A DNA stretch of 64,000 bases from Acidimicrobiales bacterium (GCA_965116715.1 OZ220724.1:156963-220962); one strand, 5' to 3'. Numbered from the stretch's first letter, positions 1,890 through 49,119 are shown. A program made the numbers and translations. Notes: generated by a model not told the origin, from the sequence alone.

Positions 1890-1894
1890 CCCGC

Positions 1895-3124: not shown

Positions 3125-3272
3125 CACGCAGCCCAATGACACGCAGCATCGGGCCTCAAACGGTAGGGTGGCAGGGCACTTCGTAGAACGCAGGGTCCCT
3201 ATCCGGCGCGGGTATGGGCGTATCTGGATGCAGGCAAGCGAAGCCTCGCAGTCGAGCACGAGGAGCCAGACG

Positions 3273-19438: not shown

Positions 19439-20899
<1,461 letters not shown>

Positions 20900-20961
20900 T
20901 CGTTGCTACGCGTTGAGGCGCCTCGCACGGCATAGGCGGCCGCAGCCGCTACCGTTACTCG

Positions 20962-21029
20962 TGGACGTCACGGGAATCGAACCCGTCGCTGCTTGGCTCA
21001 GAATCCACCAGCGGCACCATGCGACGCCC
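20962..21029 (-). pseudogene. 68-nt tRNA-like element (degenerate tRNA or tRNA remnant)
   Basis: On the minus strand, GGGCGTC pairs 7/7 (one G-U) with GACGTCC. A canonical T-arm (ACGGG-TTCGATT-CCCGT) is present. No canonical D-arm or 5-bp/7-nt anticodon arm can be drawn, and the element is about 5 nt too short. Confidence 0.4.
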
Positions 21030-21050
21030 GATGAGTCAACCGACTCGCTT

Positions 21051-21077
21051 GGGCCGCACCGTGTTTCGGTGCGGCCC
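21051..21077 (-). terminator. 10-bp GC hairpin downstream of the 212-aa island gene
   Basis: GGGCCGCACC-gtgtttc-GGTGCGGCCC, 35 nt beyond the stop at 21112. There is no clear U-tract. Confidence 0.5.
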
Positions 21078-21111
21078 AAGACTTTCATGGCGACATCGTC
21101 TCGATGAGGGT

Positions 21112-21750
21112 TCAGTATGAGTCGATACCTCCGTCGTCGGTCTCATAGACGATGTCCAGGACCGCGTTCAGGGCCGTCAGCCACTTCTCGCGGTCCTCGA
21201 TTTGCCACGAGTCACCTGCCCGCGGGAGTTTGTTGACGAGTGCTTGAATCGCTGGATCGAGGCGTGGGGCCGCTGCTGCAGGCGTCTCCTCGGCTTCGTC
21301 ACGGGTGCGTCCGGGCTTGCGCGTCGTTGAGCGCGTAGCCGAAGCTCGAGGCACCGAGAAGTGGGGCGAGACGCTGACTTCGCAATACTGAGCAGCCTGC
21401 AGAAAGAACCGGATCGCCTTATCGCGAGTGCTGCCGCGGTAACCGAACTCAGTCTCGAACAGTTCACCCAGTTGCTTGCCGGTCCCGCTCCTGCGTGAGA
21501 GTTCCATGGCGGTTCCGTATCGGGCTTCGATGGCCTCGGCCAACCAAGATCGCATCTCGTTCTCGCCCATTCGGACAACTTGACTCAGCCGTTCGGTCGA
21601 AGCGTCTTCCTCACCCATAACGAGGTCGAAGAAGCGCAAAGCGATGAGCAGTTGCGATTGGCCTCCACCAGACATGTTCTTCAAGACCGATGCGTCGATC
21701 CTGCCGGGCAGTTCGTCGGGGGCTTCTGCCATGCGCTGGAGAAACCGCAT
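21112..21750 (-). CDS. 212-aa hypothetical protein (island gene)
   Basis: The ORF is intact in the lower-GC region. A helical N-terminal half (LLIALRFFDLV..., AIRFFLQAAQY) is followed by a charged linker and a short C-terminal domain. It is divergent from the methyltransferase. Confidence 0.6.
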   Translation of the reverse strand: MRFLQRMAEAPDELPGRIDASVLKNMSGGGQSQLLIALRFFDLVMGEEDASTERLSQVVRMGENEMRSWLAEAIEARYGTAMELSRRSGTGKQLGELFETEFGYRGSTRDKAIRFFLQAAQYCEVSVSPHFSVPRASATRSTTRKPGRTRDEAEETPAAAAPRLDPAIQALVNKLPRAGDSWQIEDREKWLTALNAVLDIVYETDDGGIDSY

Positions 21751-22122
21751 GAAAGTAACAAATGCGATGTAGGGCGGTCGCGCCTAGTCAACCTGTACTG
21801 CCGACATCATGACTCCTCGTCTGCCATTTCTGCCATACCGACAGAGCATGGTGCTATCTGCCAGGAGTGGCAACGTTCCCGCAGAATGGCACGAAGTCGA
21901 TCAATCTGCCGTAATCGAGCAGGACGGCTCTGGGTGTCCGCGATCATTTCCGATCCGAATGTCCACGTTCAAACTCACTTGTTCGTCTTTCTCGTACGCA
22001 GCGAGCTGAGCGCGGACAAGCCCTACGTGAACTCGCATGGGCTTGTCGGGGACGCGGGTAGTCGGTTCGTGTAACACCCCATACGTACGTTCGTCAATTG
22101 TCCGCTCGTGCAAGGAGGACCC

Positions 22123-23520
22123 ATGTCACGATCGATAACTCGGTGTGCCGTCGTTGGCCGCCAGCATCACCTACCCGGCATTTGGGTGTCGTCTACGGTC
22201 GGCAATGTGGCTGAGGCTCCTCGACCGCCGACCAACGGCTCGATGAACACCCTGCTTGCGTGCGATGCCCCAGCGCACGATTGGTACCGGTTCGTCCTGT
22301 CGTTTCCGCCGCACCTGGTGCGTGACTACGCGGCTCGGTTTGAGCTTGCGGATGACGCAGTCGTTCTCGACCCCTTCTGCGGGACGGGTACCACGCTGGT
22401 CGAGGCTAAGAAGGCGGGTATCACCAGCATCGGTGTTGAAGCGATGCCGATGTCGAAGTTCGCAGCCCAGGTCAAGACTGATTGGGCGCCTGACCCCGAC
22501 GGTTTGGCCGACCACGCGAATCTCGTCGCCGAGAAGGCGTTGGCGAATCTGGCGGCGGATCGGCTGAGCGATGAGCCGGGTGTTCTGCCGGTTGAGAGCC
22601 GGCAATTGCGCAGCTTGGACTCCGACGCAGCCAAGCTGCTCATCAAGGACTCAATCAGCCCGCTGCCGTTGCACAAGGCACTTGTCCTGCGGGAAGCGCT
22701 CAATGGCGAGCGAGCAGCTGGGTTCACCGGCCATGAACAGCTTGCCTTCGCCCGTGTGCTCCCAACCGAGGTCGGCAACCTCCGGTTCGGCCCTGAAGTC
22801 GGAGTTGGCTCGCGGCGCGATGACGCAGCCGTGGTCGCGCCCTGGCTCGACCGTGTGCTGACTATGACCGATGACCTGCGGATTTTGGGCGCGTGCGACG
22901 GTACGTCTGCGGTAGTAGTTCCAGGAGATGCTCGCGACGTCGCATCGTGCGTTCCAGTCGAGAGTGTGGATGCCGTCATCACGTCGCCCCCGTATCCCAA
23001 CGAGAAGGACTACTCGCGGACAGTCCGTCTCGAGTCAGTGTTGTTGGGTTACCTCACGGACCGGGCAAGCCTGCGAAGCACGAAGCGCGAACTGCTCCGC
23101 TCGAACACCCGTGGCGTCTACCGCGACGACGATGACTCTGCTTGGGTCGTCAACGACAAGCGCGTGCAAGAACTCGCAGCCCAGATCGAGGAACGCCGCA
23201 TTGCTCTCGGCAAGGACTCGGGCTTCGAGCGCATGTACCACCGCGTCACGAAGCTGTACTTCGGCGGCATGGCGCGTCATCTGTCATCGCTGCGAGACGT
23301 ACTGCGACCCGGAGCTCGCCTTGCATACGTCGTTGGCGACCAGGCGTCCTATCTGCGAGTGATGATCCGTACTGGCCAGATCCTCGCCGGTATCGCCGAG
23401 CGATGTGGCTACGAGGTAGAAGGAATCGATCTGTTCAGAACTCGACCGGCCACTGCTACGCGGGACCAGCTTCGCGAAGAAGTTCTCCTGCTGCGGTGGC
23501 CCGGCCCACGGGGCAGGTGA
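22123..23520 (+). CDS. DNA methyltransferase, N4-C/N6-A class, alpha-type motif order
   Basis: AAGGAGG lies 5 nt before ATG 22123. Motif I is VLDPFCGTGTT (22368-22395). Motif IV is TSPPYP (22981-22998), about 200 aa downstream. Confidence 0.85.
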   Translation: MSRSITRCAVVGRQHHLPGIWVSSTVGNVAEAPRPPTNGSMNTLLACDAPAHDWYRFVLSFPPHLVRDYAARFELADDAVVLDPFCGTGTTLVEAKKAGITSIGVEAMPMSKFAAQVKTDWAPDPDGLADHANLVAEKALANLAADRLSDEPGVLPVESRQLRSLDSDAAKLLIKDSISPLPLHKALVLREALNGERAAGFTGHEQLAFARVLPTEVGNLRFGPEVGVGSRRDDAAVVAPWLDRVLTMTDDLRILGACDGTSAVVVPGDARDVASCVPVESVDAVITSPPYPNEKDYSRTVRLESVLLGYLTDRASLRSTKRELLRSNTRGVYRDDDDSAWVVNDKRVQELAAQIEERRIALGKDSGFERMYHRVTKLYFGGMARHLSSLRDVLRPGARLAYVVGDQASYLRVMIRTGQILAGIAERCGYEVEGIDLFRTRPATATRDQLREEVLLLRWPGPRGR

Positions 23521-23524
23521 GGAG

Positions 23525-24364
23525 GTGGCACCACAGAGTGAGACTCTGGCTCAGCGGCTGATCGCCAAAATCTTCGCTGATCGCTACCGACCCGGCATGC
23601 GCGAAGTGCCGTTTCCTCGTGATGACATCGTCGCAGCGGCTGAGGCGCCGGGCGAAGCTCGCCCGAAGAACATCGGCGACATCGTGTATTCGCTGCGCTA
23701 CCGCATGGATCTCCCGCCCTCCCTCCGGGAGGAAGCGCCACTGGGCCATGAATGGGCAATCTTCCCCGGCGGCAACGCCGTCTACGTGTTGCGTCTCGTG
23801 CCGGTCAACCTGATCAAACCGCGCGACGGCCTGCGAGTCGTGAAGCTGCCCGATGCGACACCGGGTGTCATCAGCAGCTACGCGATGTCCGACGAGCAGG
23901 CATTGCTCGCTCGTGTTCGGTACAACCGTCTGCTCGATGTGTTCACCGGACTGGCGTGTTCGTCTCTGCAAAGCCATCTGCGTACGTCTGTCACGATCGA
24001 GAACGCCATCACCGGCAAGCCAAGCAGCTCGCAGGTCGAGACGGACGAGCTGTACGTGGGGCTCGATGAGCACGGTGCCCACTACGTCTTGCCGGTGCAG
24101 GCCAAGGGTGGCAGCGACGCGCTGAGCGTCATCCAGATTTGGCAGGACTTCCGCGTTGCTGAGCAGAAGTTTCCCGAGCTTCGGCCGCGACCCGTAGCAG
24201 CGCAATTTATGGACAACGACGACATCGCGCTCTTCGAGTTCAGTGAGCACGATGGGGAGATCACGATTGAACGTGAGCGCCACTACCGGCTGATTGAACC
24301 CGATGAGCTCTCTTCGGAAGACCTACGGTCCTATCGGGCGGCATCCGAGTCGGCAAGACACTGA
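23525..24364 (+). CDS. putative type II restriction endonuclease (PD-(D/E)xK-like)
   Basis: GTG lies 4 nt after the methyltransferase stop, with GGAG in between. The string ETDELYVGLDEHGAHYVLPVQAKGG (24036-24112) fits a D...(E/Q)xK nuclease core. No family name could be assigned by eye. Confidence 0.55.
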   Translation: MAPQSETLAQRLIAKIFADRYRPGMREVPFPRDDIVAAAEAPGEARPKNIGDIVYSLRYRMDLPPSLREEAPLGHEWAIFPGGNAVYVLRLVPVNLIKPRDGLRVVKLPDATPGVISSYAMSDEQALLARVRYNRLLDVFTGLACSSLQSHLRTSVTIENAITGKPSSSQVETDELYVGLDEHGAHYVLPVQAKGGSDALSVIQIWQDFRVAEQKFPELRPRPVAAQFMDNDDIALFEFSEHDGEITIERERHYRLIEPDELSSEDLRSYRAASESARH

Positions 24365-24623
24365 GCGAAGCAGGCAAACGCCAGCCTTCGTTGGACACCC
24401 CGAAGTGCAGAGCCAGTCAAGCCGCATGCTGCGATTCGGCCGATGGGGATCCGGCGGACTGGCCGAGCATCATGCAGGTGACGGAAGCCTGGTCCGAGGC
24501 CAGAACCCACCGAATTACTTGGGTGGTGGAAGGTATTCGTCCACCTGAGAGGTTTCCTGACGTGACATTCCGCGGTTGCGCTGGTGACGGGGACCAGAGG
24601 TCCACAGCTATCTCACGCTCCGC

Positions 24624-27125
24624 CTAACGATTGCCGCTCCGCTTCCTGGCCTGTTGCTTGGCGGGCTTCGTGTCGTTCATCTCTTCGATGGACTTGAGCC
24701 CGGCCTCCTCGACTAGGGCGTCGAGTTCTGGGTCCTGGCTTGGGGGCGAATTGTCATAGACACCTCCGACTGGTCTCAACCCGTCACTCGAGCCGAACAC
24801 GATGGCCGCGCCGAATGCACATTGAAGCTGGTGCTTCTTGAGGAAGACATATGCCTCGATGCGCTCCGCGTCGGCTTCCGAAGCAAACGCTCGCGGCAAC
24901 GAAGTGAGCACGATCACGTGGCTTCGATCCCGACGGTCACCGGCGGCGATGGTGAAGCTGTGACTCTTGTCGTCGTCGGCTGTCAACTGCCTCAACCGGC
25001 CGATCATGGCCCCGAATTCTTCCTGCTCGTCCGTTGAGTAGCTGAGCAAGGTCGCGCCGATGTTCAGCCATCCGGGCGATTTCCGCCGCGCAAGATCGTC
25101 GATGACTTGCGCGACGGTCGGGTCGATGGGCAGCGCCGGACGCTCAGTAGGCACTTCTCGACGTCCGTAGCGATACGCGAACCAAGCGTCGAGATCGTCG
25201 GTTCGGCTGAACAGAAACCGAGGCACCTGCTTGTTGTACTGATCGCGGTCTGCTTCATCGGGCGCGCCTAGCTGGGGCAGCTCTGCAAATCGCTGGTCCG
25301 GGTCTGGGTTCACATACAGGCCGGTGGTCAAGAACTCCATGAACAGGTCGAGTTCGTCCATTGAGTAGTTGAACCTCGTTGTGTCGGGTTCGGTGCGGCG
25401 CCGTAGATACAGAACGAACTCAGACGGCCTCTGGACGACTTCGCTGATGACGCGCAGGTCTTGAAGCGAGACAGTCCATGGCACGGCATCGTCGCTCAGC
25501 AGCCCGTGGTCGATCAAATCGCTCGTCGTTGTCACGAAACCCGAGGTGTCCTCAAGTGTCATAGCGACGAGGAGTACTTCGCGTACATGACTCAGGTCGA
25601 GCCACGTATCGTCACGAAGGCGAAGCCCGCCATCGTTGGAGATGCGTTGCCTCAGCCGCTTCGCTTGCTCAGCGGCGCGTGTGATGAGCTTCGATAGGTC
25701 TTGTCTCAGGAGCGTCGGATCGCCGCTGCGGGCATCGGGCCGCAACGAACCTGACTTGGCCTCTACAACGACCGCTATGTCGTCGGCGAGCAGCACCGCA
25801 TCGGTTTCGCCCACGCTGGTGTAGCCCGCTGGGCCGGCAGCTGGCTCGTCGGTGCCTTCGACGGGCACGAAATACCGGATGTTTCTGTGGACGTCGGTGG
25901 CTGAGAGCAGCCCGGCCAACAGCTCGACGGATCGCTGCTCCAAGTACTTCGCCCGATGATCCGAATAGGTGCGCCATCGCTCCGAGTCCGCTCCCGACTT
26001 CGCAGCGGGTTTGAGAGCGGTCTCGATCCTCTCGCGTATGCAGTGAATGCCGTTCACACCGTGGGGGAGCACGGTCTTGCCGTCTCCGCTCGACAGCAGC
26101 GGTCGTATCCGCATCGGGGACTGCGACTCGAAGAACTGCTGCGCAGCTTCGTTCGGATCACCGCTTGTGTCGCTGTACACGAAGCAATCCACGACGGCTG
26201 CGACCGCGTCGATGCCCAGGTCAGCTTCCTCGGCGAGCTCGAGCACGTCGAAAGCTGATGCATCAGCGACATCGGCGATGAGTGCTGCGAACTGCTGACG
26301 CTGCGCGCCATCGTCGAACCCGCCAGATGTCTTGCTGATGAGTCGCCGCAGCCGCCAGCAGACTCGAGCCAAGAACCCCAGCCGGTTCACTGCCATCCCG
26401 GTGCGTCCGGCCAAGTACAAAGCAAAGGCGCGATCTCCGATGCGTTCGACTGCGTCGAATACCGCGCAAGCATCCTGCACCGTGAATCCGAGCTTGTCGG
26501 TGCAAACTTGTTCGATCTCAGCCGATCCAAACAGGCCGGCGAGTATCTCTCTTGCAATGTGGTCATGCGTGGGATTGCGGAAGTAAATCTCCTTGCCCCG
26601 CGCGTTCGAGGCCACCATGCCAAGAGGGGCGTCGGCATTGGTCGTGACAATGAAGTTTTGCGCCGCCTCCTGCCGGAACCGAAGCGACGCAAGGTCCACG
26701 ATCTCAACGGCTGCTGACAGCAACGAATCTTCTCTGTCTGGGCGTGCCGCGCCAGAGCTGCCTGATGCGGCGACTATCAGTGAGATGAGCTCGACCGTGG
26801 CCACCGTCCCCTCGTGGGTCGACTCTCGGAATGTGTTGGGGTCATGCGCCAATTCCAAGATGCGCACGACAGTCAGTACATGGAATGGGTCGAATGGTCG
26901 CGCCAGCTCAGCAATCGCCTCAACGGCCGCGCGTGCATCTCGTGATAGCGCCTCCATGCAGTCCTCGACGCGCGAATGGGCGCTCGCGTAGTGGCGGAGC
27001 AGCCTCTGGTGTTCCTGAAACCGTCTCAAGATGAGATCCTCGGCACCCGGAGTCAGACTCACGATGCCCTGCGGCGGATCACTCGCCGGGGAACGCTGCC
27101 GATTTAGCGACCACCTTGTCACCAC
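24624..27125 (-). CDS. 833-aa orphan protein with a central NERD-like PD-(D/E)xK motif
   Basis: A single long ORF in the lower-GC region. The string VGETDAVLLADDIAVVVEAKSGS (about 25745-25815) resembles the NERD nuclease core. No Walker A motif was seen. The start codon is uncertain (GTG 27125 or downstream). Confidence 0.65.
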   Translation of the reverse strand: MVTRWSLNRQRSPASDPPQGIVSLTPGAEDLILRRFQEHQRLLRHYASAHSRVEDCMEALSRDARAAVEAIAELARPFDPFHVLTVVRILELAHDPNTFRESTHEGTVATVELISLIVAASGSSGAARPDREDSLLSAAVEIVDLASLRFRQEAAQNFIVTTNADAPLGMVASNARGKEIYFRNPTHDHIAREILAGLFGSAEIEQVCTDKLGFTVQDACAVFDAVERIGDRAFALYLAGRTGMAVNRLGFLARVCWRLRRLISKTSGGFDDGAQRQQFAALIADVADASAFDVLELAEEADLGIDAVAAVVDCFVYSDTSGDPNEAAQQFFESQSPMRIRPLLSSGDGKTVLPHGVNGIHCIRERIETALKPAAKSGADSERWRTYSDHRAKYLEQRSVELLAGLLSATDVHRNIRYFVPVEGTDEPAAGPAGYTSVGETDAVLLADDIAVVVEAKSGSLRPDARSGDPTLLRQDLSKLITRAAEQAKRLRQRISNDGGLRLRDDTWLDLSHVREVLLVAMTLEDTSGFVTTTSDLIDHGLLSDDAVPWTVSLQDLRVISEVVQRPSEFVLYLRRRTEPDTTRFNYSMDELDLFMEFLTTGLYVNPDPDQRFAELPQLGAPDEADRDQYNKQVPRFLFSRTDDLDAWFAYRYGRREVPTERPALPIDPTVAQVIDDLARRKSPGWLNIGATLLSYSTDEQEEFGAMIGRLRQLTADDDKSHSFTIAAGDRRDRSHVIVLTSLPRAFASEADAERIEAYVFLKKHQLQCAFGAAIVFGSSDGLRPVGGVYDNSPPSQDPELDALVEEAGLKSIEEMNDTKPAKQQARKRSGNR

Positions 27126-27447
27126 CCCAACATAGAGAAGTCGTGCCGCGGCAGCCTGAAGAATTATGCGTACGCGGACGTCGATGTAGCGGCGTTAGCG
27201 CAAGGCACGCAATGGAGGACATCTGGACGAAATCCTGTTTCGCTTGGCTGGCCGGTTCAGACGGGTCGGTGGTCGCCGGCCCGTCGTACGTGGCGACCAG
27301 AGTCCATCTCAAGTGCGTGGCCAGATCGATCAGGTCGCCTTCAGATCATCTTCAGGACGCGCTGCCGGGGACACTGATCAGCAACTCTCACGCGGGAACA
27401 GCGACGTCGGCCTCGCCCGAATTTGCAGTTCGTAACATTCGCCGCTC

Positions 27448-27966
27448 ATGCGGCGGCCTGAAATCACCAACCTCTATTCCTGCGAGTTCTCACCAACCCG
27501 CAATCGATTGTTGCTCAGCGTCGTAGTGGCACTCGTCATGACGACGGCAGTCGGCTGCACACCTCCGGCAACTCCTCTCGACCTAGTGAACGTCGATGTG
27601 GAGGTCGCTGGCCCATCGGTCGAACGGTGCAACATCGAGGGTGAAGCGTTCAAGGCAGCTGCGGAGCATGCCGACGCGGTGGACCGCAGAGCCAACGATG
27701 AGGCAGCAGTGCGGGAGCTTCTGGACGAAGCCGAGCGCACTGGCGACTACGGCAGGGTGAACGGTCTGCTGCTCGAACACGTGGCAGCGTTCGAGGGATC
27801 AGCTGTAGCGATGACGCGAGCCGTTGACATGTGCTCATCGTTCTGGAAGCAGGATGAGATCGAAGCTCTGCGAGACAGAATCGAACTCATCGAGCAAACG
27901 ACCCATGATCTCTGTCTGCTATACGACCTTCTCTACTCAGAACATGGGTTGGAGCTCGAATGCTGA
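27448..27966 (+). CDS. putative lipoprotein (helical, Cys-containing)
   Basis: A signal peptide with lipobox (LLLSVVVALVMTTAVGC) is followed by a helical acidic domain. Confidence 0.5.
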   Translation: MRRPEITNLYSCEFSPTRNRLLLSVVVALVMTTAVGCTPPATPLDLVNVDVEVAGPSVERCNIEGEAFKAAAEHADAVDRRANDEAAVRELLDEAERTGDYGRVNGLLLEHVAAFEGSAVAMTRAVDMCSSFWKQDEIEALRDRIELIEQTTHDLCLLYDLLYSEHGLELEC

Positions 27967-28150
27967 CACCGGACACGGTTCTGTCCGATGGCTGTTCGCT
28001 ATGGGCGGCCAGCTGATCAACCGCGGCGGTAGGCCGACCCTGCGGCCCCCTGGCTGGCGGCCTTGGGCCACAACCTTCAACATCGCGCACCCACACATAC
28101 TCAGCTTGCTCCAACGCTGCTGAGCGACTTCCCAGCGCCAAACAGCGCGG

Positions 28151-30415
28151 CTAGGCGGACCTACTCGCGGTGCCGTTGCGGAAGCCGTCGAGGATGTCGT
28201 TGAACGTGGTGCTGGGCCGCATGGCGGCTTCGGCGAGCGCGGGATCGGGCAGGTAGTAGCCGCCGAGCTCGACTGGCACGCCCTGGCACTCCACGAGCTC
28301 GGCGAGGATCTGACTCTCGTTGGCCGCCAGTGCAGCCGCCAGCGTGGCGAATCGCTCTGCGAGATCGGCGTCGGTCCCTTGGCGGGCCATCTCATCGGCC
28401 CAGTGCTTGGCGAGATGGAAATGGCTGGCCCGGTTGTCGGGCTCGTTCACCCGACGGCTCGGAGCACGGCCCTCGGCCAGCCAGGTGCCGATGGCAGCGT
28501 CGAGCGTGTCCGCGAGCAGCTGCGCAGCGGCGTTGCCGGCCACCCGGGCGAGATGCTCGAGCGAGACCGCCAGTGCGAGGAACTCGCCCAGGCTGTCCCA
28601 CCGCAGGTGGTTCTCGGCCACCATCTGCTGCACGTGCTTGGGCGCCGAACCTCCGGCACCGGTCTCGAAGAGGCCGCCGCCTGCCATGAGCGGCACCACC
28701 GACAGCATCTTGGCCGAGGTGCCCAGTTCGAGGATTGGGAACAGGTCGGTGTTGTAGTCGCGCAGCACGTTGCCAGTCACCGAGATGGTGTCCTCGCCGC
28801 GCCGGATGCGTTCCAGCGAGAAGCGACACGCCTCGGCAGGCGCCAGCGTGCGGATGTCCAGGTCGCCAATGGTCGGGTCTGCACTCCGGCGCTCGCCCAG
28901 GCGGGCGTTGACCTTGGCGAGGAGCTGCCCATCGTGAGGCCGGTCGGCATCCAGCCAGAACGCGACCGCAGCACCAGTGAGCTGGCCTCGTTCGACGGCC
29001 AGGTCCACCCAGTTGGCGATGGCTGCGTCCTTGGTGGTGCACATGCGCCAGATGTCGCCTTCGGCGACCTGGTGGCTCATCAGCACCTCGCCCGATTCGG
29101 TGACGACGCGCATGGTCCCCGCGGTGTCGATCTCGTAGGTCTTGTCGTGGCTGCCGTACTCCTCGGCTTTCTGTGCCATCAGGCCCACGTTGGGCACCGA
29201 TCCCATGGTCGTGGGATCGAATGCGCCATTCGCACGGCAGTCGTCGATGACTGTCTGGAACACGCCCGAGTAGCTGGAGTCGGGGATGACGGCCTTGGTG
29301 TCCTGCTGGTTGCCCTCGGCGTTCCACATCTGGCCCGACGAGCGGATCATTGCCGGCATGGACGCGTCGACGATGACGTCGCTCGGCACATGCAGGTTGG
29401 TGATGCCGCGGTCCGAGTCGACCATGGCCAGCCTGGGGCGCTCGGCGAGCGTGGCGGCGATGTCGGCCTCGATGGCCTCGCGCTGTACTGCGGGCAGCGA
29501 TTCGACGGCGGACAGCACGTTCGCCCAGCCGTCGTTGGGGTCTGCGCCCGCCGCGGCGAGCGCTTCGCCGTGCCGGTCGAACACCGGTGCGAAGAACGCC
29601 CGCACGGCATGCCCGAAGACGATCGGGTCGGAGACCTTCATCATGGTGGCCTTCAGGTGCAGCGAGAACAGCACGCCGCCCGAGCGGGCGTCGGCAATCT
29701 GCTCGTCGAGGAACTCGCGCAGTGCGGCGACCGACATGAAGGTGGAGTCGACGACATCGCCGGCACCTACCGGGACCTTGCGCATCAGGCGCACGTTCCC
29801 CTCGTCGTCCACGTGCTCGATGCTCAGTGAGCCTGCACCGTCTGCGGTGACCGACTGCTCATTGGAGCGGAAATCGCCGCCGGACATCGTCGACACGTGG
29901 CTGCGGCTCTGCTGCGACCAGGCGCCCATGGAGTGGGGGTACTGGCGCGCGTACTCCTTGACGGCGCGGGGCGCGCGGCGATCGGAGTTGCCCTCGCGCA
30001 GCACCGGGTTCACCGCCGAGCCCTTCACGCGGTCAAAGCGCTCGCGGATCTCATGCTCGGAGGCGTCTGCGGGGTCGTCGGGATAGTCGGGGACTGCGTA
30101 GCCCTTCGATTGCAGCTCGACGACGGCGTCCTTGAGCTGGGGGACCGAGGCGGAGATGTTCGGCAGCTTGATGATGTTGGCGCCGCGATCGTGGGTCCAC
30201 TCGCCGAGTTCGCCGAGCGCATCGCCGATTCGCTGGTGGGGCTCGAGCATGTCGCCGAAAGCCGCGATGATCCGCCCTGCCAGCGAGATGTCGCGTGTCT
30301 CGACGTCGATGCCTGCGGCATCGGTGAACGCCGTGATGATCGGCAGCAGCGAGTAGGTGGCCAGCGCCGGTGCCTCGTCGGTGTGCGTGTAGACGATCTT
30401 CGATGTCGAGTTCAC
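28151..30415 (-). CDS. icd: monomeric NADP-dependent isocitrate dehydrogenase
   Basis: It is 754 aa long. The N-terminus [21 protein letters not shown] is typical of monomeric IDH. Confidence 0.9.
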
Positions 30416-36555: not shown

Positions 36556-37629
36556 ATGACTCGGGTGCTGCTGCGGCTCCGAGACACTTCAGATGGAGCG
36601 CCGGTGACCGAAAAGCCCGACCCGTTCACGGTCCCGTTCGGGACCATCTTCTGCGACTGGATGACGACGGCGCGCGCCGATGACGGGCCGTACGTCTACG
36701 GGGGCGTAGCAGAGCCCTTCGGCGATTTCTCGATCAGCCCCGCGGCGCATGTGCTGCACTACGGCAGCGCCATCTTCGAAGGGCTCAAGGCACACCGTCA
36801 GGTCGATGGGTCATTGGCGATCTTCCGGCTGGACAGCCATGTCGCCCGCATGGTCGCGAGCGCGGAACGGCTGCGGCTGCCAGCCATTGACGGCGACGTG
36901 CTGCATCAGATGTCCATTGATGCAGTCGAGGCGAATGCCGGCGAAGTGCCCGATCCGCCCGGATCGCTGTACATCCGCCCGACGCTGATCGGCACCGAGC
37001 CCGACATCGGCGCCGCAGCCCGCCCGACTCGCAGCGCGCTGCTCTATGTTGTGAACTGCCCGGTGGGCGACTACTTCAAGGGCGGCGTTCGGCCCCTCAC
37101 CTTGCTGGTGGAGACCGAGATTCCCCGCACGGTCCCGCAGTTCGGCATGGTGAAGTGCGGCGGGAACTACGCGATGGCGCTCGCACCGACGCTCGATGCG
37201 ATGGCCGGCAACGAGGCCATCGATCAGATGCTGTTCGCCACGGATGGGGACATCACCGAGACCGGGGCGTCGAACTTCTTCCTGGCTGACGACGAGCGAG
37301 TGGTGACCCGCCATCTCGACGAGTCGTTCCTGCACGGCGTCACCCGTGCGTCGGTGATCGAGCTCGCTGCCTCTCTGGGCTACGAGGTCGAGGAGCGGTC
37401 GATCGACCCCGAGGAACTCGTTGACTGGGCTGAGCGAGGAGAGGCCTTCCTGTCCGGAACCGCCGCGGTGCTCGCGCCCGTCGGCACCATCCTGTACGAG
37501 GGCAAGACGCTCACCGTGGGCGACGGTCAGCCGGGTCACAACACCATGCGGCTGCGCCAGGCACTCGTCGACATCCAGATCGGCGCTGCGCCCGACCCCT
37601 TCGGCTGGCGCACGCCGGTGAAGGGCTGA
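36556..37629 (+). CDS. ilvE: branched-chain amino acid aminotransferase (fold type IV)
   Basis: The motifs YGSAIFEGLKA, IRPTLIG, KCGGNYA and TGASNFF are class IV aminotransferase motifs. Confidence 0.85.
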   Translation: MTRVLLRLRDTSDGAPVTEKPDPFTVPFGTIFCDWMTTARADDGPYVYGGVAEPFGDFSISPAAHVLHYGSAIFEGLKAHRQVDGSLAIFRLDSHVARMVASAERLRLPAIDGDVLHQMSIDAVEANAGEVPDPPGSLYIRPTLIGTEPDIGAAARPTRSALLYVVNCPVGDYFKGGVRPLTLLVETEIPRTVPQFGMVKCGGNYAMALAPTLDAMAGNEAIDQMLFATDGDITETGASNFFLADDERVVTRHLDESFLHGVTRASVIELAASLGYEVEERSIDPEELVDWAERGEAFLSGTAAVLAPVGTILYEGKTLTVGDGQPGHNTMRLRQALVDIQIGAAPDPFGWRTPVKG

Positions 37630-37634
37630 GCTTC

Positions 37635-38222
37635 GTGGCCGGCCAGGACGCCGATCGCATCGTGTCCTGGACCGCGATGGAGCACGGGACGGCCGAGGAC
37701 TACGAGTTCCTGGATCAGCAGCACTACGCACACGTCCGATCCGGGCTGGTCGACAACCTGCTGAACATCCTGCAGTGCCTACGCGGACCCACGCTGGGCT
37801 ACCCGATCGATCGCTACGACCACAGCCTGCAATCGGCAACGAGGGCGCTGCGGAATGGCGAATCGACGGACCTGGTGGCCGCGGCCCTGCTGCATGACAT
37901 CGGCGACGCCTTCGCGCCGGAGAATCACAGCGCCGCCGGCGCCGCCGTGCTGCAGCCCTATGTCGACGAGCGCACCCACTGGGTGATCGCCCACCACGGG
38001 CTCTTTCAGGGCTACTACTACTTCCACCACCTCGGCGGCGACCGCGACGCCCGCGAGCGGTACCTGGGATCACCCCACTACGACGCCTGCGTGGATTTCT
38101 GCCAGAACTACGACCAGAACTGCTTCGATCCGAAGTACCCCAACCTGGCGGCAGAGGACTTCCGCCCTCTGCTCGAAGAGGTCTTCAGCCGCCACTCACA
38201 ACTTCCCGCCACTGCCCCCTGA
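37635..38222 (+). CDS. HD-domain protein of the PhnZ/MIOX-like (possible di-iron oxygenase) type
   Basis: HSLQSATRALRNGESTDLVAAALLHDIGD parallels the HSLQ...ALLHDLG motif of PhnZ-type HD proteins. The C-terminal part has YDQNCFDP. Confidence 0.65.
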   Translation: MAGQDADRIVSWTAMEHGTAEDYEFLDQQHYAHVRSGLVDNLLNILQCLRGPTLGYPIDRYDHSLQSATRALRNGESTDLVAAALLHDIGDAFAPENHSAAGAAVLQPYVDERTHWVIAHHGLFQGYYYFHHLGGDRDARERYLGSPHYDACVDFCQNYDQNCFDPKYPNLAAEDFRPLLEEVFSRHSQLPATAP

Positions 38223-38262
38223 TCTGAACGCGGCCAGCACGGCCATCACAGGCTGAGTCGCT

Positions 38263-38652
38263 TCACCACAGGGTGGCGATGGGGAACTCCCCGAACGCCC
38301 GGTCGGCGGTCACGAGGGTCAGCGATTCGCGCTCGGCCTGCGCTGCCAGCATCCGGTCGAACGGATCCTTGTGTGCAGCGTCATAGCTGCCTGCCATCAG
38401 TGCTTGCTCGTGTATGACTGGAAGATGCAAGAAGCCGTCTGCGGTGACTGATGCGCCGAAGTGTGGAACGAGGTCGCTGAATTCACCCAGCCGGTCCATC
38501 CTCGCCTTGGTTGCCATCTCCCATGCGCTCACGGCGCTCGCAAACACCAGGGTTTCCTCGTCTGAGATCGCTTCGCGGGCGACTGCTGAGAGTGACGGAT
38601 GATCAGCCCACCACCACAGCAGCGCATGCGTGTCGAGCAGGAGGTCGTTCAT
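38263..38652 (-). CDS. vapC: type II toxin VapC (PIN domain)
   Basis: The sequence LLLDTHALLWW...DPFDRMLAAQA...LVTAD carries PIN acidic residues. Its ATG overlaps the antitoxin stop (ATGA). Confidence 0.85.
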   Translation of the reverse strand: MNDLLLDTHALLWWWADHPSLSAVAREAISDEETLVFASAVSAWEMATKARMDRLGEFSDLVPHFGASVTADGFLHLPVIHEQALMAGSYDAAHKDPFDRMLAAQAERESLTLVTADRAFGEFPIATLW

Positions 38653-38891
38653 TCGCCCTCCCAAAGGGCGAGTTCATCGTCAGGCAAGGGGTCGAAGAAC
38701 TCCGGCGGGATCTTGATCCCGCGAAACCTGCCAGGCATCCGCCGGGTTGGCGCAGGCACGTACGGCACGAGGCGGGCACACGGCTTGCCCGCCCGCGCTA
38801 TCACGATCTCCTCACCCGCCTCAACTCGGCTGAGCAGCTTCGACAGGTGCGTCTTGGCTTCATGCACATTCACGGTGTGTGATCGTTCCAC
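38649..38891 (-). CDS. Phd/YefM-type antitoxin
   Basis: VNVHEAKTHLSKLLSRVEAGEEIVIARAGKPCARLVP is a typical Phd/YefM N-terminal domain. Confidence 0.8.
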   Translation of the reverse strand: MERSHTVNVHEAKTHLSKLLSRVEAGEEIVIARAGKPCARLVPYVPAPTRRMPGRFRGIKIPPEFFDPLPDDELALWEGE

Positions 38892-38940
38892 AGACTTTCA
38901 GCCCTTTCAAATGATTTTCATTAGTCGTGTCGTTATAAAC

Positions 38941-38961
38941 TTAGTCTAATGACTAGACTAA
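38941..38961. promoter_or_regulatory. palindrome in the AT-rich region upstream of the TA operon (candidate antitoxin operator)
   Basis: TTAGTCTA-atgac-TAGACTAA lies 50-70 nt upstream of the antitoxin start, in the only AT-rich patch of this neighbourhood. Confidence 0.4.
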
Positions 38962-39045
38962 TACCCGAAACGCGCTATGGATCATTCTCAGAACGCGCTG
39001 TGGCGCGTCGCGGGGCCAGCGACACTGCTGCTGGGCAGTGGCGGG

Positions 39046-39710: not shown

Positions 39711-42700
39711 TTATCGCGCCCCGGCGGGCTCAGCCGAAGTGAATTCCAGCTGTAGGTCGCGCGCCACTGCGTCGGGGCTTCGCGCTGCGGGGTCGCCGTA
39801 ACCGCCGCCGCCCGGGAACTCCACGATCAGGCGGCGGTCGCCGGGAATCACCGAACGCCCCTTGGCACGCACCTCGGTGCCGTCGTCGAGCGACAGGCGT
39901 CCCAGCGCTCCGGGTGCACCGCCGTGCCGCCCGCGCGCGGGGAAGACCGTCCGTTCGTAGGTCGCGCTGATCGAGAAGTCTCTTCCTTGGCGGTTCTCCA
40001 GCTCGATGACCTGGCCGAGCCCACCCCGGTACATGCCCCCTCCGCCGGAGTCGGTGCGGAACTCCTTGCGCCAGAACACGAGCGGCGAACCGATCTCGTT
40101 CACCTCTACCGGCATGTTGCGAACACCGCTCGGGAACGCTGTCGCCGACAACCCGTCTGCCTGCGGGCGGGCGCCGGCACCGCCCGAATGGAAGCTCATC
40201 AGGATGTACCGCTCGAGCCTGCGGCGCGCCTCATGGTCGGCCTCGTCGTCATGTCCGATACGACCGGTGCCGGATTGCCCGACCGTCGTACGCGAGCGAT
40301 TCGTCGAGCCGACTCCGGTGTCGGGCTCCCACATGCCGGTGCCGAGCAGGTTCCACAGCGACGATGTGCCCTCCGCGGGCACCCGCTCGGGCACCACTTG
40401 GCTCAGGCATCCGAACACGGCGTCGGGGAGCAGCTGGCCCATGACGTGACGCACGTTCACCGCTGCTGGATGGGGCGCATTGAGAATGCAGCCCTCCGGT
40501 GCTCGGACGCGCACGGCGTCGAGCGAGCCTGTGTTGTTCGGGATATCGGGGCCGATGATGCAGCGCACGCCGAATGACGTGTAGGCGTCGGTGTAGGCCA
40601 TCGGCACATTGATGCCCCAGCTCGACTGGGGCCCAGTGCCGGCGAAGTCCACGTCGATGCCGTCATCGCCGACGGTCAGCGAGCACACGATGTCGATGTG
40701 CTGCTCCATGCCGTCGACTCGCATCGTCGAGTCCCACGTGCCCGGTGGCAGCTCGCCGATCGCATCGAGCATGGCCCGGTGCGACGACGTGATGATGTGG
40801 TCGGCCAGCTCGTCCAAGTCAGCCATGCCGTATTCGTCCATCATCGAGATGAGGCGAGCAGCGCCGGTCTCGTTGCAAGCAGCCAGCGAGTGGATGTCGC
40901 CGACGACCTGCACCGGGTCGCGGACGTTGGCCTCGATGATCGCCACCACATTCGGGTCGAACACGCCGTCGGTCGCGAACTTCAGGATCGGCAGGTACAG
41001 GCCCTCGTGGTACACCTCCTTCGAGTCGGTGGTGAACCCGGCACCGCCGATGTCCACCACGTGGCTCGTGCAGGCGAACAGCGCCACCAGCTCGCCGCGC
41101 AGGAAGGCCGGCGTGACCACCACGATGTCGAACAGGTGGCCAGTGCCCTTCCACGGGTCGTTGGTGAGGAAGATGTCGCCGGGGCGCATCTCCGACGCCG
41201 GGTAGCGATCCAGGAAGTGCAGCACCGAGTAGGCCATGGAGTTCACGTGGCCCGGTGTGCCCGTGACCGACTGGGCGAGCATCCGCCCCTGTGGGTCGAA
41301 GATGCCCGCCGACAGGTCGCCGGCTTCGCGGGTGGAGGTGCTGAAGGCAGCACGCACGAGCGCCCGTGCCTGCTCCTCGGTCACCGAGATGAGGCGGTTC
41401 CACTGCACGCCGAGCCGCACCGCGTCGAGGTCTGCAGCGGCATCGGCTGCGGTCCGCGGCTGCTGCGGCGCCGAGACGCCGGTGAGCCGCAGATGGCCGC
41501 CGACCGTGACCGTTGCCGCCGCTCCAGCGGGCACCAAGGTCGTGGTCTGATCCTCGGTGACCAGCGCAGGCCCTGCTAGCCACGCGCCTTCGATGAGGGC
41601 GTCGCGCTCGAAGACCGCATGGGGGACGGCCCGGCCGGTTGCGGTATCGGTGACCAGCGCCGTCGCGTCGGAGGCGACCGGCTCGACTGCGACGGCTGGG
41701 TGCAGGGAAACGGCGGCAGCCTGAGGGGTGCGGACTTCCAGCAGCCAGCTCAGCACTTCGATCTCGAGGTTGCCGATGTGGCGCGTGTAGAGCTGCTGGT
41801 AGGCCTTGGTGAATGCGGTGCGCAGCTGGTTGCGAACCTCGGCGTCGCTCGGGTTATCGATGTCGTCGGCGAGCAGCGCTGCGGCGTCGACGTCGACGGT
41901 GATCTCATGGCCTTGACCGCGGTACCGCATCAAGGCCCGCGCATGGGTGACCGTCTCGGCACCGGGCGCGGCAGCGTGCACGATCGCGTTCGACTCGGCG
42001 GCCATCTCGCGCAGCAGGCCCGCCAGGTTCGCTGCGGTCAGCTCGCTCACCCGGGCATGGCGTGTGCGCACCGATTCGTGAGCGACAGGCGCCGCCAGGA
42101 AGCCGATGGCCGACCCCACGCCTGCCCCCGCTGGCACCACGATGTCGTCAATGCCCAGCTTGGCAGCCACCCGCGCAGCGTGCAGCGACGCCGCGCCGCC
42201 GAAGGCGATGAGCGTCCCGCTGCTGATGTCGCAGCCTTGATCTGCTGCGTGAACGCGACCGGCGTTGGCCATGTTCTCGTCGACCACTTCGGAGATGCCG
42301 ATGGCAGAGACGGTCGTCTGCAGGCCCGACGGTTCCGCCAGCGCGGTCCCGACGGCCTTGGCGGCGGCGTCGACGTCGAAGGTCAATGTGCCGCCGGCGA
42401 ACCGTTCCGGCGCCAGCCGGCCCAGCACGGCATCGGCGTCGGTCACCGTCGGCTCGATTCCGCCACGCCCGTAGGCGGCGGGACCCGGTTCGGAACCGGC
42501 GCTGGCCGGACCGACAGTGATGCGCCCGAGCGCATCGAGGCTGGCGATGGAGCCGCCGCCGGCGCCGATCTCGACCATCTCGATCACCGGCAGACGCAGC
42601 GGGAGCCCGCTGCCGGCCAGGAAGCGGTACTCGCGGCCCACCTCGAACTCACGGCTCGTGCGGGGATGACCGCCCTCGACGATGCACAGCTTCGCCGTGG

Positions 42701-43589
42701 TGCCGCCCATGTCGAAGCTGAGGGCTCGTTCGCAGCCGAGGCCTCGGGCAATTCCCGAGGCGAGCAGAGCGCCGCCCGCGGGCCCGCTCTCGATCAACCG
42801 GACCGGGAAGCGCAGCGCCTCGGCGAGCGTTCCCAGCCCGCCGCCTGAGGTCATGAGGAACACCTCGCAGCCCAATCCCAGCGCTGCGAGCCGCGCATCG
42901 AGGTCGGTCAAGTACTGCCTCACCAGCGGTGCGATGTAGGCGTTGGCGCATGCAGTGGAGAAGCGTTCGTATTCCCGGATCTCGGGGCAGACCTCGCTGG
43001 AGATGGTGACGGTCGCCTCGGGCCAACAGCCGGCCAGGATCTCGGCGGTGCGCTGCTCGTGGCGGGCATCGAGATACGAGTGCAGGTAGCCGACGGCGAC
43101 GCTGGTGACGCCGTCGGCCGCGAGCGACGCTGCTGCGGCCCGGACGGCATCTTCGTCGAGCGGCAGCAGCACACTGCCGTCGGCGGCGAGGCGCTCGGGA
43201 ATGCCGATGCGACGGTTGCGCGGCACCAGCGGCTCGGGCCGGCGCATGTACAGGTCGTACTGCTCGAACCGGTTCTCATGGGCCATCTCGACTGAGTCGC
43301 GGATGCCTTGGGTCGTCAGCAGCGCCGTGCGTGCGCCCCGGCGCTCGATGAGCGCGTTGGTGGCGAGCGTGGTGCCGTGGATGAACACTTCCACCTCGCC
43401 GGGCCCGACGCCTGCGGTTGCAAGAACGGTCTGGACGCCGTCGAGCACGGCATCGGCCGGCGCCTCCGGGGTTGTCAGCACCTTCGTGGTGTGGAGCTGA
43501 CCGGGGGCACCCTCAGCGCCGACCTCGAGCGCGATGTCGGTGAATGTGCCGCCGATGTCGGCCGCGAGCCGAGCGCGCCTGGGGGCCAT
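39711..43589 (-). CDS. fused hydantoinase A/B-type 5-oxoprolinase (about 1292 aa)
   Basis: The HyuA N-terminus (ADIGGTFTDIAL) and a HyuB-type C-terminal half lie in one ORF. The start is set at MAPRRARLAADIGG. The upstream 87 codons are rejected because they are antisense to ribH. Confidence 0.85.
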   Translation of the reverse strand: MAPRRARLAADIGGTFTDIALEVGAEGAPGQLHTTKVLTTPEAPADAVLDGVQTVLATAGVGPGEVEVFIHGTTLATNALIERRGARTALLTTQGIRDSVEMAHENRFEQYDLYMRRPEPLVPRNRRIGIPERLAADGSVLLPLDEDAVRAAAASLAADGVTSVAVGYLHSYLDARHEQRTAEILAGCWPEATVTISSEVCPEIREYERFSTACANAYIAPLVRQYLTDLDARLAALGLGCEVFLMTSGGGLGTLAEALRFPVRLIESGPAGGALLASGIARGLGCERALSFDMGGTTAKLCIVEGGHPRTSREFEVGREYRFLAGSGLPLRLPVIEMVEIGAGGGSIASLDALGRITVGPASAGSEPGPAAYGRGGIEPTVTDADAVLGRLAPERFAGGTLTFDVDAAAKAVGTALAEPSGLQTTVSAIGISEVVDENMANAGRVHAADQGCDISSGTLIAFGGAASLHAARVAAKLGIDDIVVPAGAGVGSAIGFLAAPVAHESVRTRHARVSELTAANLAGLLREMAAESNAIVHAAAPGAETVTHARALMRYRGQGHEITVDVDAAALLADDIDNPSDAEVRNQLRTAFTKAYQQLYTRHIGNLEIEVLSWLLEVRTPQAAAVSLHPAVAVEPVASDATALVTDTATGRAVPHAVFERDALIEGAWLAGPALVTEDQTTTLVPAGAAATVTVGGHLRLTGVSAPQQPRTAADAAADLDAVRLGVQWNRLISVTEEQARALVRAAFSTSTREAGDLSAGIFDPQGRMLAQSVTGTPGHVNSMAYSVLHFLDRYPASEMRPGDIFLTNDPWKGTGHLFDIVVVTPAFLRGELVALFACTSHVVDIGGAGFTTDSKEVYHEGLYLPILKFATDGVFDPNVVAIIEANVRDPVQVVGDIHSLAACNETGAARLISMMDEYGMADLDELADHIITSSHRAMLDAIGELPPGTWDSTMRVDGMEQHIDIVCSLTVGDDGIDVDFAGTGPQSSWGINVPMAYTDAYTSFGVRCIIGPDIPNNTGSLDAVRVRAPEGCILNAPHPAAVNVRHVMGQLLPDAVFGCLSQVVPERVPAEGTSSLWNLLGTGMWEPDTGVGSTNRSRTTVGQSGTGRIGHDDEADHEARRRLERYILMSFHSGGAGARPQADGLSATAFPSGVRNMPVEVNEIGSPLVFWRKEFRTDSGGGGMYRGGLGQVIELENRQGRDFSISATYERTVFPARGRHGGAPGALGRLSLDDGTEVRAKGRSVIPGDRRLIVEFPGGGGYGDPAARSPDAVARDLQLEFTSAEPAGAR

Positions 43590-43651
43590 CCGCCCAGCGT
43601 AGGCGCGCCGTCCTGGGGCGCCCCCTGTGGTCAGGGGGGTACCGTGCAGGC

Positions 43652-44137
43652 GTGGCGAGCGGCGATCAGCGGGCCAGCAGGCCACCGGCAGGGGCTGGTG
43701 CGGGGCTGCGCGTCGGCGTCGTGCGAGCGGCGTGGAATCGCGACATCGTGGATCGGCTGGCGGCTGGCGCCCAGCGCGGCCTGGACGAGCTCGGTGTCGC
43801 TGAGACGACCGAGGTGATGGTGCCCGGTTGCTTCGAGATCCCATTCGCATCGCAGGTGCTGGCTCGCAGCGGGCATGTCGATGCGATCGTGGTCATCGGG
43901 GCGGTGATCCGCGGGGAGACGACCCACTACGAGCTGGTCAGCGAGGGCGCCGCGCAGGGCGTGATGGCCGTTCAGCTCGACACAGGTGTGCCGGTCGGTT
44001 TCGGCTTGGTCACGGTGGAGAACAGCGAACAAGCCGTGGCCCGCAGCGAGGGCGCTGGCGGCCACAACGTCGGCGAGGAAGCGGCCTATGTGGCGGTGTC
44101 GATGGCGCTGCTCGCCCGCGACTTCCCTGCAGGCTGA
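43652..44137 (+). CDS. ribH: 6,7-dimethyl-8-ribityllumazine synthase
   Basis: The motifs VPGCFEIPFASQ, GAVIRGETTHYE and GFGLVTVEN are lumazine synthase motifs. GTG 43652 was chosen to give about 161 aa. Confidence 0.85.
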   Translation: MASGDQRASRPPAGAGAGLRVGVVRAAWNRDIVDRLAAGAQRGLDELGVAETTEVMVPGCFEIPFASQVLARSGHVDAIVVIGAVIRGETTHYELVSEGAAQGVMAVQLDTGVPVGFGLVTVENSEQAVARSEGAGGHNVGEEAAYVAVSMALLARDFPAG

Positions 44138-48094: not shown

Positions 48095-48145
48095 ACGGAG
48101 GATCGTGCCTGCTCCGCAGCAGGCGGGGCGCATTAGCTTGCGCGC

Positions 48146-49091: not shown

Positions 49092-49119
49092 CCCGTCGCT
49101 GGCGACTCAACTGAGGATG

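Follow-up and report, generated by a model that had tools for sequence, protein, structure and literature searches.

Single-protein defence nucleases of the PD-(D/E)xK superfamily are already known and include GAPS1, Upx and Shedu. GAPS1 is a validated single-protein system with essential D313 and K328 residues; the T7 capsid protein triggers it, and dormancy follows (bioRxiv 10.1101/2023.03.28.534373). Upx is a monomeric protein of 1272 amino acids (aa) that carries a canonical core (D1161, E1176, K1178) at its extreme C-terminus; this nuclease is regulated by the other domains of the protein and is activated by phage gp16 and terminase (PMC13099982, PMC13601566). The combination of a nuclease with variable sensory modules, encoded in or beside BREX and restriction-modification (R-M) loci, is a concept common to the NERD/Shedu-type proteins (PMC12839542). 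In this work, we analysed a stretch of 64,000 nucleotides (nt) from an Acidimicrobiales bacterium (GCA_965116715.1 OZ220724.1:156963-220962; hereafter the window) and characterized the product of the open reading frame (ORF) at positions 24624-27125 on its minus strand, which encodes 833 aa from a GTG start (hereafter the target protein). This protein represents a large, unnamed and mostly actinobacterial family that is both chromosomal and plasmid-borne. We propose, with a probability of roughly 0.6, that the members of this family are single-polypeptide PD-(D/E)xK nucleases of ~800 aa that serve as stand-alone anti-phage or anti-plasmid defence proteins and operate as autoinhibited sensor-nucleases. 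Because the family is unnamed and its members stand alone among anti-phage defence genes, it probably constitutes a new type of single-protein defence nuclease. In the sequence libraries and literature that we searched, no description was found of the family, of its central-core architecture or of its conserved C-terminal module.

A preliminary description of the window, made from the sequence alone, had placed the ORF at the same coordinates, and the two strings that it singled out are both present in the protein: YTSVGETDAVLLADDIAVVVEAKSGSL (residues 435-461, window positions 25743-25823) and RNPTHDH (residues 183-189, positions 26559-26579). It had also noted the lack of a nucleoside triphosphatase (NTPase) motif, and the target protein indeed contains no Walker A pattern [AG]xxxxGK[ST] in a regular expression search and has zero Pfam matches to AAA/P-loop families.

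The nuclease core and its relatives

The gene and its nuclease core occupy the following positions in the window:

24624-27125, minus strand: whole ORF, 833 aa, with the stop codon at 24624-24626 and a GC content at third codon positions (GC3) of 0.72, as in the other genes of the island described below
25458-26045, minus strand: PD-(D/E)xK core, residues ~361-556, delineated by invariant catalytic residues, AlphaFold2 (AF2) topology, Foldseek matches and similarity to the GapS1 hidden Markov model (HMM)
25743-25823, minus strand: the YTSVGETDAVLLADDIAVVVEAKSGSL segment, residues 435-461, a beta2-turn-beta3 hairpin with D442, E455 and K457 (AF2 and alignment)

In an alignment of 87 family sequences with 23-77% identity to the target protein, residues R391, E396, D442, E455, K457, Q487, R490, L557, R577, E591 and D593 are conserved in every sequence (87/87) and E440 is retained in 86. 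The D...ExK signal is far above chance: D442, E455, K457, E396, R391, Q487 and R490 are each found in all 87 sequences. These residues provide the full set expected of the superfamily, namely an Asp on beta2 (D442), a (D/E)xK motif on beta3 (E455 and K457) and an acidic residue on alpha1 (E396). The AF2 model of the target protein, built from the same alignment (predicted local distance difference test, pLDDT, 90.4; predicted template modelling score, pTM, 0.91), contains helices at residues 381-407 and 470-498 and strands at 411-420, 437-447, 450-457 and 516-523. E396 is placed on helix 381-407, D442 on strand 437-447, E455 and K457 on strand 450-457, and Q487 and R490 on helix 470-498, so that the core runs in the order alpha1 (R391, E396), beta1, beta2 (E440, D442), beta3 (E455, K457), alpha2 (Q487, R490), beta4, beta5. 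This layout is the canonical alpha-beta-beta-beta-alpha-beta arrangement of the PD-(D/E)xK fold. Judging from the invariant catalytic residues and the predicted fold, the centre of the protein is a genuine PD-(D/E)xK active site with its catalytic residues intact, in agreement with the nuclease core proposed in the preliminary description.

A Foldseek search of the PDB with the full-length model, made as a check on the fold, gave zero matches below E = 1e-3, and the ranking was nonetheless coherent. The best match (E = 1.5e-3, probability 1.00, 598 aligned columns) was to Upx, a defence nuclease whose structure was solved by cryo-EM (9wuf), followed by the small subunit of BspD6I (probability 1.00; template modelling score, TM-target, 0.51), VC1899, Cas4 SSO0001, Can2, the R2 retrotransposon endonuclease and CidB. 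All of these lower-ranked matches, from BspD6I to CidB, are PD-(D/E)xK enzymes. Matches in the viral structure library BFVD were limited to small RecB-, Cas4- and exonuclease VIII-like PD-(D/E)xK nucleases.

At the sequence level, the target protein had zero matches in Pfam, PADLOC and the PDB sequences, and its sole trace in NCBIfam was a sub-threshold similarity to 'antiphage GapS1' (residues 442-500, E = 0.13, 11 bits). In scans of family libraries with the target protein and 54 family members, GapS1 (NF047931) gave the most consistent signal: 9 of the 54 members matched it (best E = 4.5e-6), with alignments that cover profile positions ~192-355 of 455, that is, the nuclease core only (alpha1-beta3-alpha2). 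Because the match is confined to the core and reaches at most 25 bits (24.9 bits for the best member and 11 bits for the target protein) against a cut-off of 320 bits, we consider the core to be homologous to that of GapS1, yet place the protein outside the GapS1 family. By sequence, the GapS1 nuclease core is the closest detectable relative, and no other curated family showed detectable similarity of this kind.

The target protein shares with GapS1 of Vibrio parahaemolyticus (WP_005477165.1) the single-protein organization, the position of the PD-(D/E)xK core after a non-catalytic region, the 15-residue spacing between the catalytic Asp and Lys (D313/K328 in GapS1, D442/K457 in the target protein) and the residence in defence islands and mobile elements. 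In contrast, GapS1 is a protein of ~455 aa with the nuclease near its C-terminus, whereas members of the target family have ~800 aa and a central nuclease; the ~280 conserved residues that follow the core in the target family are absent from GapS1. GapS1 is found mainly in Gammaproteobacteria, whereas the sampled members of the target family come almost entirely from Actinomycetota, and the capsid trigger and dormancy outcome are established for GAPS1 alone. Upx, an anti-phage protein that is likewise a large single-polypeptide PD-(D/E)xK nuclease without an NTPase, is the protein whose structure the full-length model matches best; from lengths only, its C-terminal domain (residues 715-1272, with D1161 ~446 residues in) may be set beside residues 1-556 of the target protein (with D442). 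Upx differs in having a second, minimal nuclease at the N-terminus and a middle domain, both absent in the target family, and its core lies at the extreme C-terminus, whereas that of the target protein is central (361-556) and is followed by the conserved 280 residues. Membership in Upx was rejected: the PADLOC upx models were negative for the target protein and the 54 members, a search of the PDB with the family profile returned only noise (E <= 10), and the central position of the core does not satisfy the three-domain architecture of Upx.

The preliminary description had called the core NERD-like. This holds at the level of the clan, as NERD and Shedu (DUF4263) proteins also belong to the PD-(D/E)xK clan and the beta-hairpin of NERD carries the same 'D...ExK' signature, but it does not extend to the NERD family itself (PF08378), to which the target protein showed zero match at E <= 1 and only three of the 54 members showed any (best E = 0.013). 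Shedu (SduA, DUF4263) was rejected as well, with zero Pfam or PADLOC matches in the target protein and the 54 members. The NERD/Shedu proteins have a different architecture, and it is the target family that carries the conserved C-terminal module. Weak structural similarity to the target core, and possibly to the C-terminal region, was seen for Can2, Card1/VC1899 and Cas4 SSO0001, and one of the 54 members had a single faint PADLOC match to CARF_PDDEXK (E = 5e-4). Unlike the CRISPR-ancillary and Cas4/RecB-type nucleases, the target protein has no CARF/SAVED sensor, no Fe-S cysteines and no CRISPR association, and it lacks the QxxxY motif, having Q487xxR490 in its stead. Six actinobacterial systems, Ceres, Geb, Veles, Prithvi, Ukko, as well as Oshun, are reported as validated in the accessible part of a preprint (bioRxiv 10.1101/2025.01.08.631966); as described there, Prithvi, Ukko and Geb are unlike the target family.

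Family range and genomic context

An exhaustive phmmer search of 1.84 billion cluster representatives (clusters at 50% identity) yielded 2019 clusters at E <= 1e-3, 1027 at E <= 1e-10 and 270 at E <= 1e-30. Nearly all of the best matches align end to end, over ~760-850 aa. The family is therefore large, and the designation of the protein as an orphan in the preliminary description was wrong. A word-indexed search recovered only five close homologues, with 57-100% identity. Scanning one genome per species produced 45 loci, all of them from Actinomycetota, with hosts that include members of Acidimicrobiia (among them Ca. Poriferisodalis, 74% identity), Micromonospora, Streptomyces, Microbacterium, Arthrobacter, Nocardia, Rhodococcus and others; a weak match was found on a plasmid of Salimicrobium (Bacillota). 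This taxonomic range is a lower bound, because the search patterns came from close relatives. Homologues are carried by 11 plasmids, and no phage or viral origin was detected, with zero tblastn matches in 50,697 phage records and zero in IMG/VR. Public records label the homologues as 'hypothetical protein', and five copies from Streptomyces plasmids, including the one at 867-3221 on a plasmid of Streptomyces goshikiensis (L054), are labelled 'preprotein translocase subunit SecA' in RefSeq. We rejected the latter label, which is a propagating misannotation, because these proteins have the family motifs and lack the SEC-C motif; similarity to SecA is absent as well.

To examine the organization of the loci, genes were called in 46 loci with a GC3-aware ORF picker. 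BLASTP clustering of the six neighbours on each side revealed no conserved partner gene in the 46 loci, the recurrent neighbours being IS-type genes only. A small or medium gene on the same strand lies directly downstream in about half of the loci (21 cases: L001 12364-13707, L002 10488-11420, L049 13018-14220 and 18 others) and, in L001, shares 4 nt with the family gene. These 21 downstream genes are mutually unrelated by phmmer, and the three that were checked had zero Pfam matches; they may mark a hypervariable accessory slot or be a coincidence. Genes for ~1000-aa proteins located upstream in several loci were considered as a shared partner and rejected, as they do not form one family. The absence of a partner across the 46 loci agrees with the single-gene organization suggested in the preliminary description: the family member acts as a single gene.

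The contexts that were annotated point consistently to defence systems or mobile elements. One homologue (P0030, in metagenomic contigs) is found inside a type I R-M operon with the gene order hsdM, hsdS, AAA_15/AAA_21 ATPase, UvrD helicase, family member, hsdR, with Mrr_cat nearby. Its ATPase and UvrD-like helicase neighbours form a Gabija-like pair, and the locus clearly illustrates the nesting of defence genes within an R-M operon. In the contigs that carry it (L051-L053, 3812-15691), three genes are inserted between hsdS and hsdR. Another homologue, WP_014924725.1, is encoded on plasmid pGKT2 of Gordonia sp. KTR9 (L055, 103474-115649) between a helicase and the genes for a DUF1156 methyltransferase and a DUF499 ATPase; the host operon is a BREX-related (Hma/BR) system, and the family member may occupy the 'auxiliary nuclease' slot of such operons (PMC12839542). 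Further homologues are located between a Type ISP enzyme of 1596 aa, which immediately precedes the family member, and a NERD protein; beside Wadjet JetC/JetD, a serine recombinase, a ResIII helicase and DUF4238; beside GmrSD and SLFN/AlbA_2; and beside a NACHT/AAA_16 giant, DDE and rve transposases, DUF4238 and DUF6602. Lsr2 is a further neighbour.

We also scanned the 102 proteins of >=249 aa that are encoded within two genes of the family member in 45 loci. Strong PADLOC matches among them were to REase_III, MTase_III, LmuB (3e-175), CBASS cyclase (3e-118), MkoA, MkoC, PifA, Dsr1, GajA, PDC-S45 and PDC-S37; further PADLOC matches were to PbeA, mREase_IV, DpdF and REase_I, and Pfam matches to ResIII, Phage_integrase, rve, Resolvase, IS110, SIR2_2, SLFN_AlbA_2 and RepSA. 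On the assumption that the match of each family represents a different protein, at least 11 of the 102 neighbours match at E <= 1e-35. Against the published PADLOC background of 0.65% of proteins, this corresponds to a binomial P of ~1e-10, a value that is rough because the matches were pooled per family and the genes were called heuristically. Members of the family are preferentially located in defence islands and mobile elements, and a check of their neighbourhoods placed them in these contexts rather than in housekeeping ones.

The copy in the window resides in an island with the following features:

20900-28150, no strand: low-GC island of ~7 kb, between argG (19511-20899, plus strand) and the gene for monomeric isocitrate dehydrogenase (28151-30415, minus strand)
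22108-23520, plus strand: type II DNA methyltransferase (MTase), 470 aa (Pfam N6_N4_Mtase; PADLOC MTase_II, E = 1e-33)
23525-24364, plus strand: type II restriction endonuclease (REase), 279 aa (PADLOC REase_II PDLC03404, E = 3.9e-96)

The GC content of the island is ~61%, as compared with 68-70% in its flanks, and the GC3 values of its genes are 0.69-0.74, as compared with ~0.85 in the flanking genes. The target gene has been horizontally acquired, and its location on foreign DNA, convergent with an R-M pair, is as the preliminary description had it. The MTase and REase genes form a complete type II R-M pair and are 4 nt apart, with the REase convergent with the target gene; the HMM matches of the MTase fall in two separate stretches, at residues ~55-128 and ~253-459. 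Searches of the island for a tRNA, an integrase and convincing att repeats were negative, the direct repeats being short and at chance level.

The remaining ORFs of the island are poorly characterized. The one at 21112-21750 (minus strand, 212 aa, GC3 0.69) has zero match in Pfam, PADLOC and NCBIfam. It overlaps a 164-aa ORF at 21580-22074 (plus strand), which also has zero library match and failed the GC3 coding filter. Additional island cargo or an R-M controller are possible roles for these two. Divergent from the target gene is a 172-aa ORF at 27448-27966 (plus strand) with a lipoprotein-like signal (...ALVMTTAVGC...) and a faint match to the Lpp/OprI alanine zipper (E = 0.035); it failed the GC3 coding filter and counts as a possible gene only. 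Between argG and the 212-aa ORF, at 21048-21080, there is a perfect 14-bp inverted repeat with a 5-nt loop that resembles a bidirectional terminator. Elsewhere in the window, a 1379-aa ORF is found at 39711-43850 (minus strand), and GC content dips to 0.64-0.66 at ~37000-39000 and ~48000-57000, as compared with ~0.69-0.71, with negative GC skew at 49-57 kb. These two stretches may be other horizontally acquired segments.

Regions flanking the core

The remaining parts of the protein, from the N- to the C-terminus, are as follows:

26256-27062, minus strand: N-terminal all-helical region, residues ~22-290 (AF2, with pLDDT mostly >85 except at 252-268)
26559-26579, minus strand: RNPTHDH string, residues 183-189, which is not a HEPN motif
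26046-26255, minus strand: probable winged-helix-like segment, residues ~291-360 (AF2 strand-helix-helix-strand at 291-317; family consensus 'FTaaElAeatGl..etVeavLd.F')
24966-25457, minus strand: post-nuclease, mostly helical region, residues 557-720 (alignment and AF2)
24627-24965, minus strand: C-terminal alpha/beta domain, residues 721-833, beta-beta-alpha-beta-beta, with near-invariant Y759, K763 and Q766

The true start codon is ambiguous among three candidates, GTG 27125 (833 aa), GTG 27062 (V22, 812 aa) and ATG 26957 (M57, 777 aa). The second of these is used by a metagenomic protein with 100% identity (P0001). The third is preceded by the best Shine-Dalgarno sequence (GAGGA), and two homologues begin at the equivalent of M57; despite this, residues 28-56 are modelled with high confidence in AF2. 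The N-terminal 300 residues are the least conserved part of the protein, at 0.7-1.7 bits per column in the 87 sequences, as compared with 2.3-2.6 at residues 451-600, and the N-terminal helical region is a candidate sensor or regulatory module. For the adjoining segment, the family profile produced marginal matches to winged-helix proteins (E = 0.09-0.9).

The RNPTHDH string had been suggested to fit, loosely, the Rx4-6H pattern of HEPN RNases, in which case the protein would be a dual RNase/DNase. In favour of such a reading, R183 is retained in almost every sequence (85/87), Asn often comes next (47/87), and the model places the residue in a loop that joins two helices. The His residues, however, are not conserved: position 187 (H187 in the target protein) is Tyr in 76 of the 87 sequences and His in five, and position 189 is His in only 40, with Ser, Asp, Glu or Arg in the others. 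The R-x(4-6)-H pattern is, moreover, frequent by chance, occurring eight times in the target protein compared with ~4.5 times in shuffled sequences, and no HEPN family or structure appears among the Pfam matches of the target protein and the 54 members or among the Foldseek matches. We therefore reject the HEPN reading, which residue conservation effectively refutes and which we regard as extremely improbable.

The preliminary description had recognized no motif on either side of the core. On the downstream side this view has to be abandoned, as residues 451-600 form the conservation peak of the family (2.3-2.6 bits per column) and include the invariant R577, E591 and D593. These belong to a second cluster of invariant or near-invariant charged residues that follows the core (Y573, R576, R577, D590, E591, D593, T642, D646 and P663) and is visible in the target protein as YLRRRTEP...DELDLF at 25341-25409. 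Modelled separately, residues 541-833 reach a pLDDT of 94 in AF2. Foldseek gave zero matches below E = 1e-3 for this segment; the best was to the Cas4/RecB-type structure 4ic1 (E = 4.8e-3, probability 0.75, TM <= 0.3), with MGME1, ACE1 and CidB also retrieved. The likeness of the C-terminal domain to Cas4/RecB is weak, and its beta-strands lack the D...ExK triad. Descent of the C-terminal region from a duplicated and degenerated nuclease core was considered and is at most a possibility: the hhalign profile-profile probability is 0.1% and the Foldseek likeness is weak.

Across the family, the N-terminus and the last domain are variable, and the catalytic and post-catalytic core is highly conserved. 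Variable ends around a conserved core are a pattern typical of sensor-effector immune proteins. The conserved 280-residue post-nuclease region is the most novel element of the protein. We tentatively suggest that it could be a new functional module, either a second catalytic site, which would make the protein a dual-activity enzyme in parallel to the dual-nuclease Upx, or a new switch that senses a ligand or phage protein and gates the PD-(D/E)xK site; this suggestion is possible rather than probable.

Proposed mechanism and alternative explanations

The most economical mechanism, by analogy with the nearest functional analogues, would be that of an autoinhibited sensor-nuclease contained in one polypeptide. 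The central domain would act as a metal-dependent phosphodiesterase, with D442 and E455 binding the metal, K457 as the catalytic Lys and E396, R391, Q487 and R490 in supporting roles. In the resting cell, the nuclease would be restrained by the flanking modules, that is, the variable helical and winged-helix-like N-terminal region and the conserved C-terminal 280 residues. A cue that appears upon infection would then free it; like those of GAPS1 (capsid) and Upx (terminase, gp16), this cue may be a phage protein, or, alternatively, it may be an unusual nucleic-acid structure. The freed nuclease would degrade phage and/or host nucleic acid, probably DNA, and phage replication would be halted, perhaps with growth arrest as the price. 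A role as the sensor would suit the variable N-terminus, and that of a gate or a second site would suit the invariant post-nuclease cluster.

Several observations weigh against this proposal. The PADLOC v2 models gave zero match to the target protein, and no recognizable sensor fold was found by Foldseek in its N- and C-terminal modules. The structural match to Upx has a low TM-score (0.22/0.17; root mean square deviation 13 A, E = 1.5e-3) and provides no residue mapping. Behind the enrichment of defence genes stand gene calls that are heuristic, HMM counts that are aggregated and a background rate from the literature, and the peptide patterns of the genome scan, derived from close relatives, bias the sample of both range and context towards Actinomycetota. 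Residence in defence islands is equally typical of other cargo of mobile elements.

The main competing explanation is a solitary restriction enzyme that senses DNA directly, such as a modification-dependent endonuclease of Type IV; its winged-helix-like and C-terminal modules would read a feature of the DNA, and it would cut foreign DNA without a protein trigger or harm to the host. Such an enzyme would account for the single gene without a conserved methyltransferase partner, for the probable winged-helix-like segment ahead of the nuclease, for the repeated location beside or inside R-M, BREX-related and Type ISP loci and near GmrSD, Mrr_cat and mREase_IV, and for the presence of BspD6I among the Foldseek matches. 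We nevertheless consider it unlikely, given that the readers of modified bases (SRA, EVE, YTH and DUF3427-like domains) and the Type IV families were undetected in the target protein and the 54 members, that the winged-helix assignment is weak, and that GAPS1 and Upx are both triggered by protein and not by DNA modification.

Two other explanations are less likely than direct DNA sensing. The presence of homologues on 11 plasmids and next to integrases, transposases, resolvases and the pSAM2-type RepSA, together with the weak structural likeness of the core and the C-terminal region to processing nucleases of the Cas4, RecB and MGME1 types, would suit a nuclease carried as cargo on plasmids, ICEs and IS-rich islands for maintenance of the mobile element, recombination or repair, which would serve in end processing or plasmid competition and not against phages. 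The family shows no conserved association with a helicase, recombinase or replication gene, is embedded in defence operons (hsdS-hsdR; BR/Hma) rather than in transfer or replication modules, and is absent from phage records and viral contigs, all of which makes this role improbable. Still more remote is a toxin or addiction nuclease that stabilizes the island through post-segregational killing or with an unrecognized antitoxin, with defence at most a side effect. The target gene does lie on horizontally acquired DNA beside an R-M pair, and about half of the loci have a same-strand downstream gene that might be a variable partner. R-M pairs are themselves addiction modules. Those downstream genes are, however, mutually unrelated and have no counterpart in the window, where the convergent REase comes next, and a multidomain protein of ~800 aa with a variable N-terminus is atypical of the toxins of toxin-antitoxin systems.

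Actinomycetota are under-explored with respect to phage defence, and most of the defence families predicted there are unvalidated. In R-M, BREX-related and Type ISP loci, the family described here repeatedly fills the slots that receive auxiliary defence genes, although no Pfam, PADLOC or NCBIfam model covers it. If its function is validated, the small group of sensor-nucleases that consist of one polypeptide and lack an NTPase (Upx, GAPS1) would gain a new architecture, studies of gating would have a clear set of point mutants (D442/E455/K457 versus R577/E591/D593), and the annotation of thousands of genes would improve. Should the post-nuclease module have either of the roles considered above, the family would represent a single-protein immune system with a new mechanism and a wide distribution in Actinomycetota.

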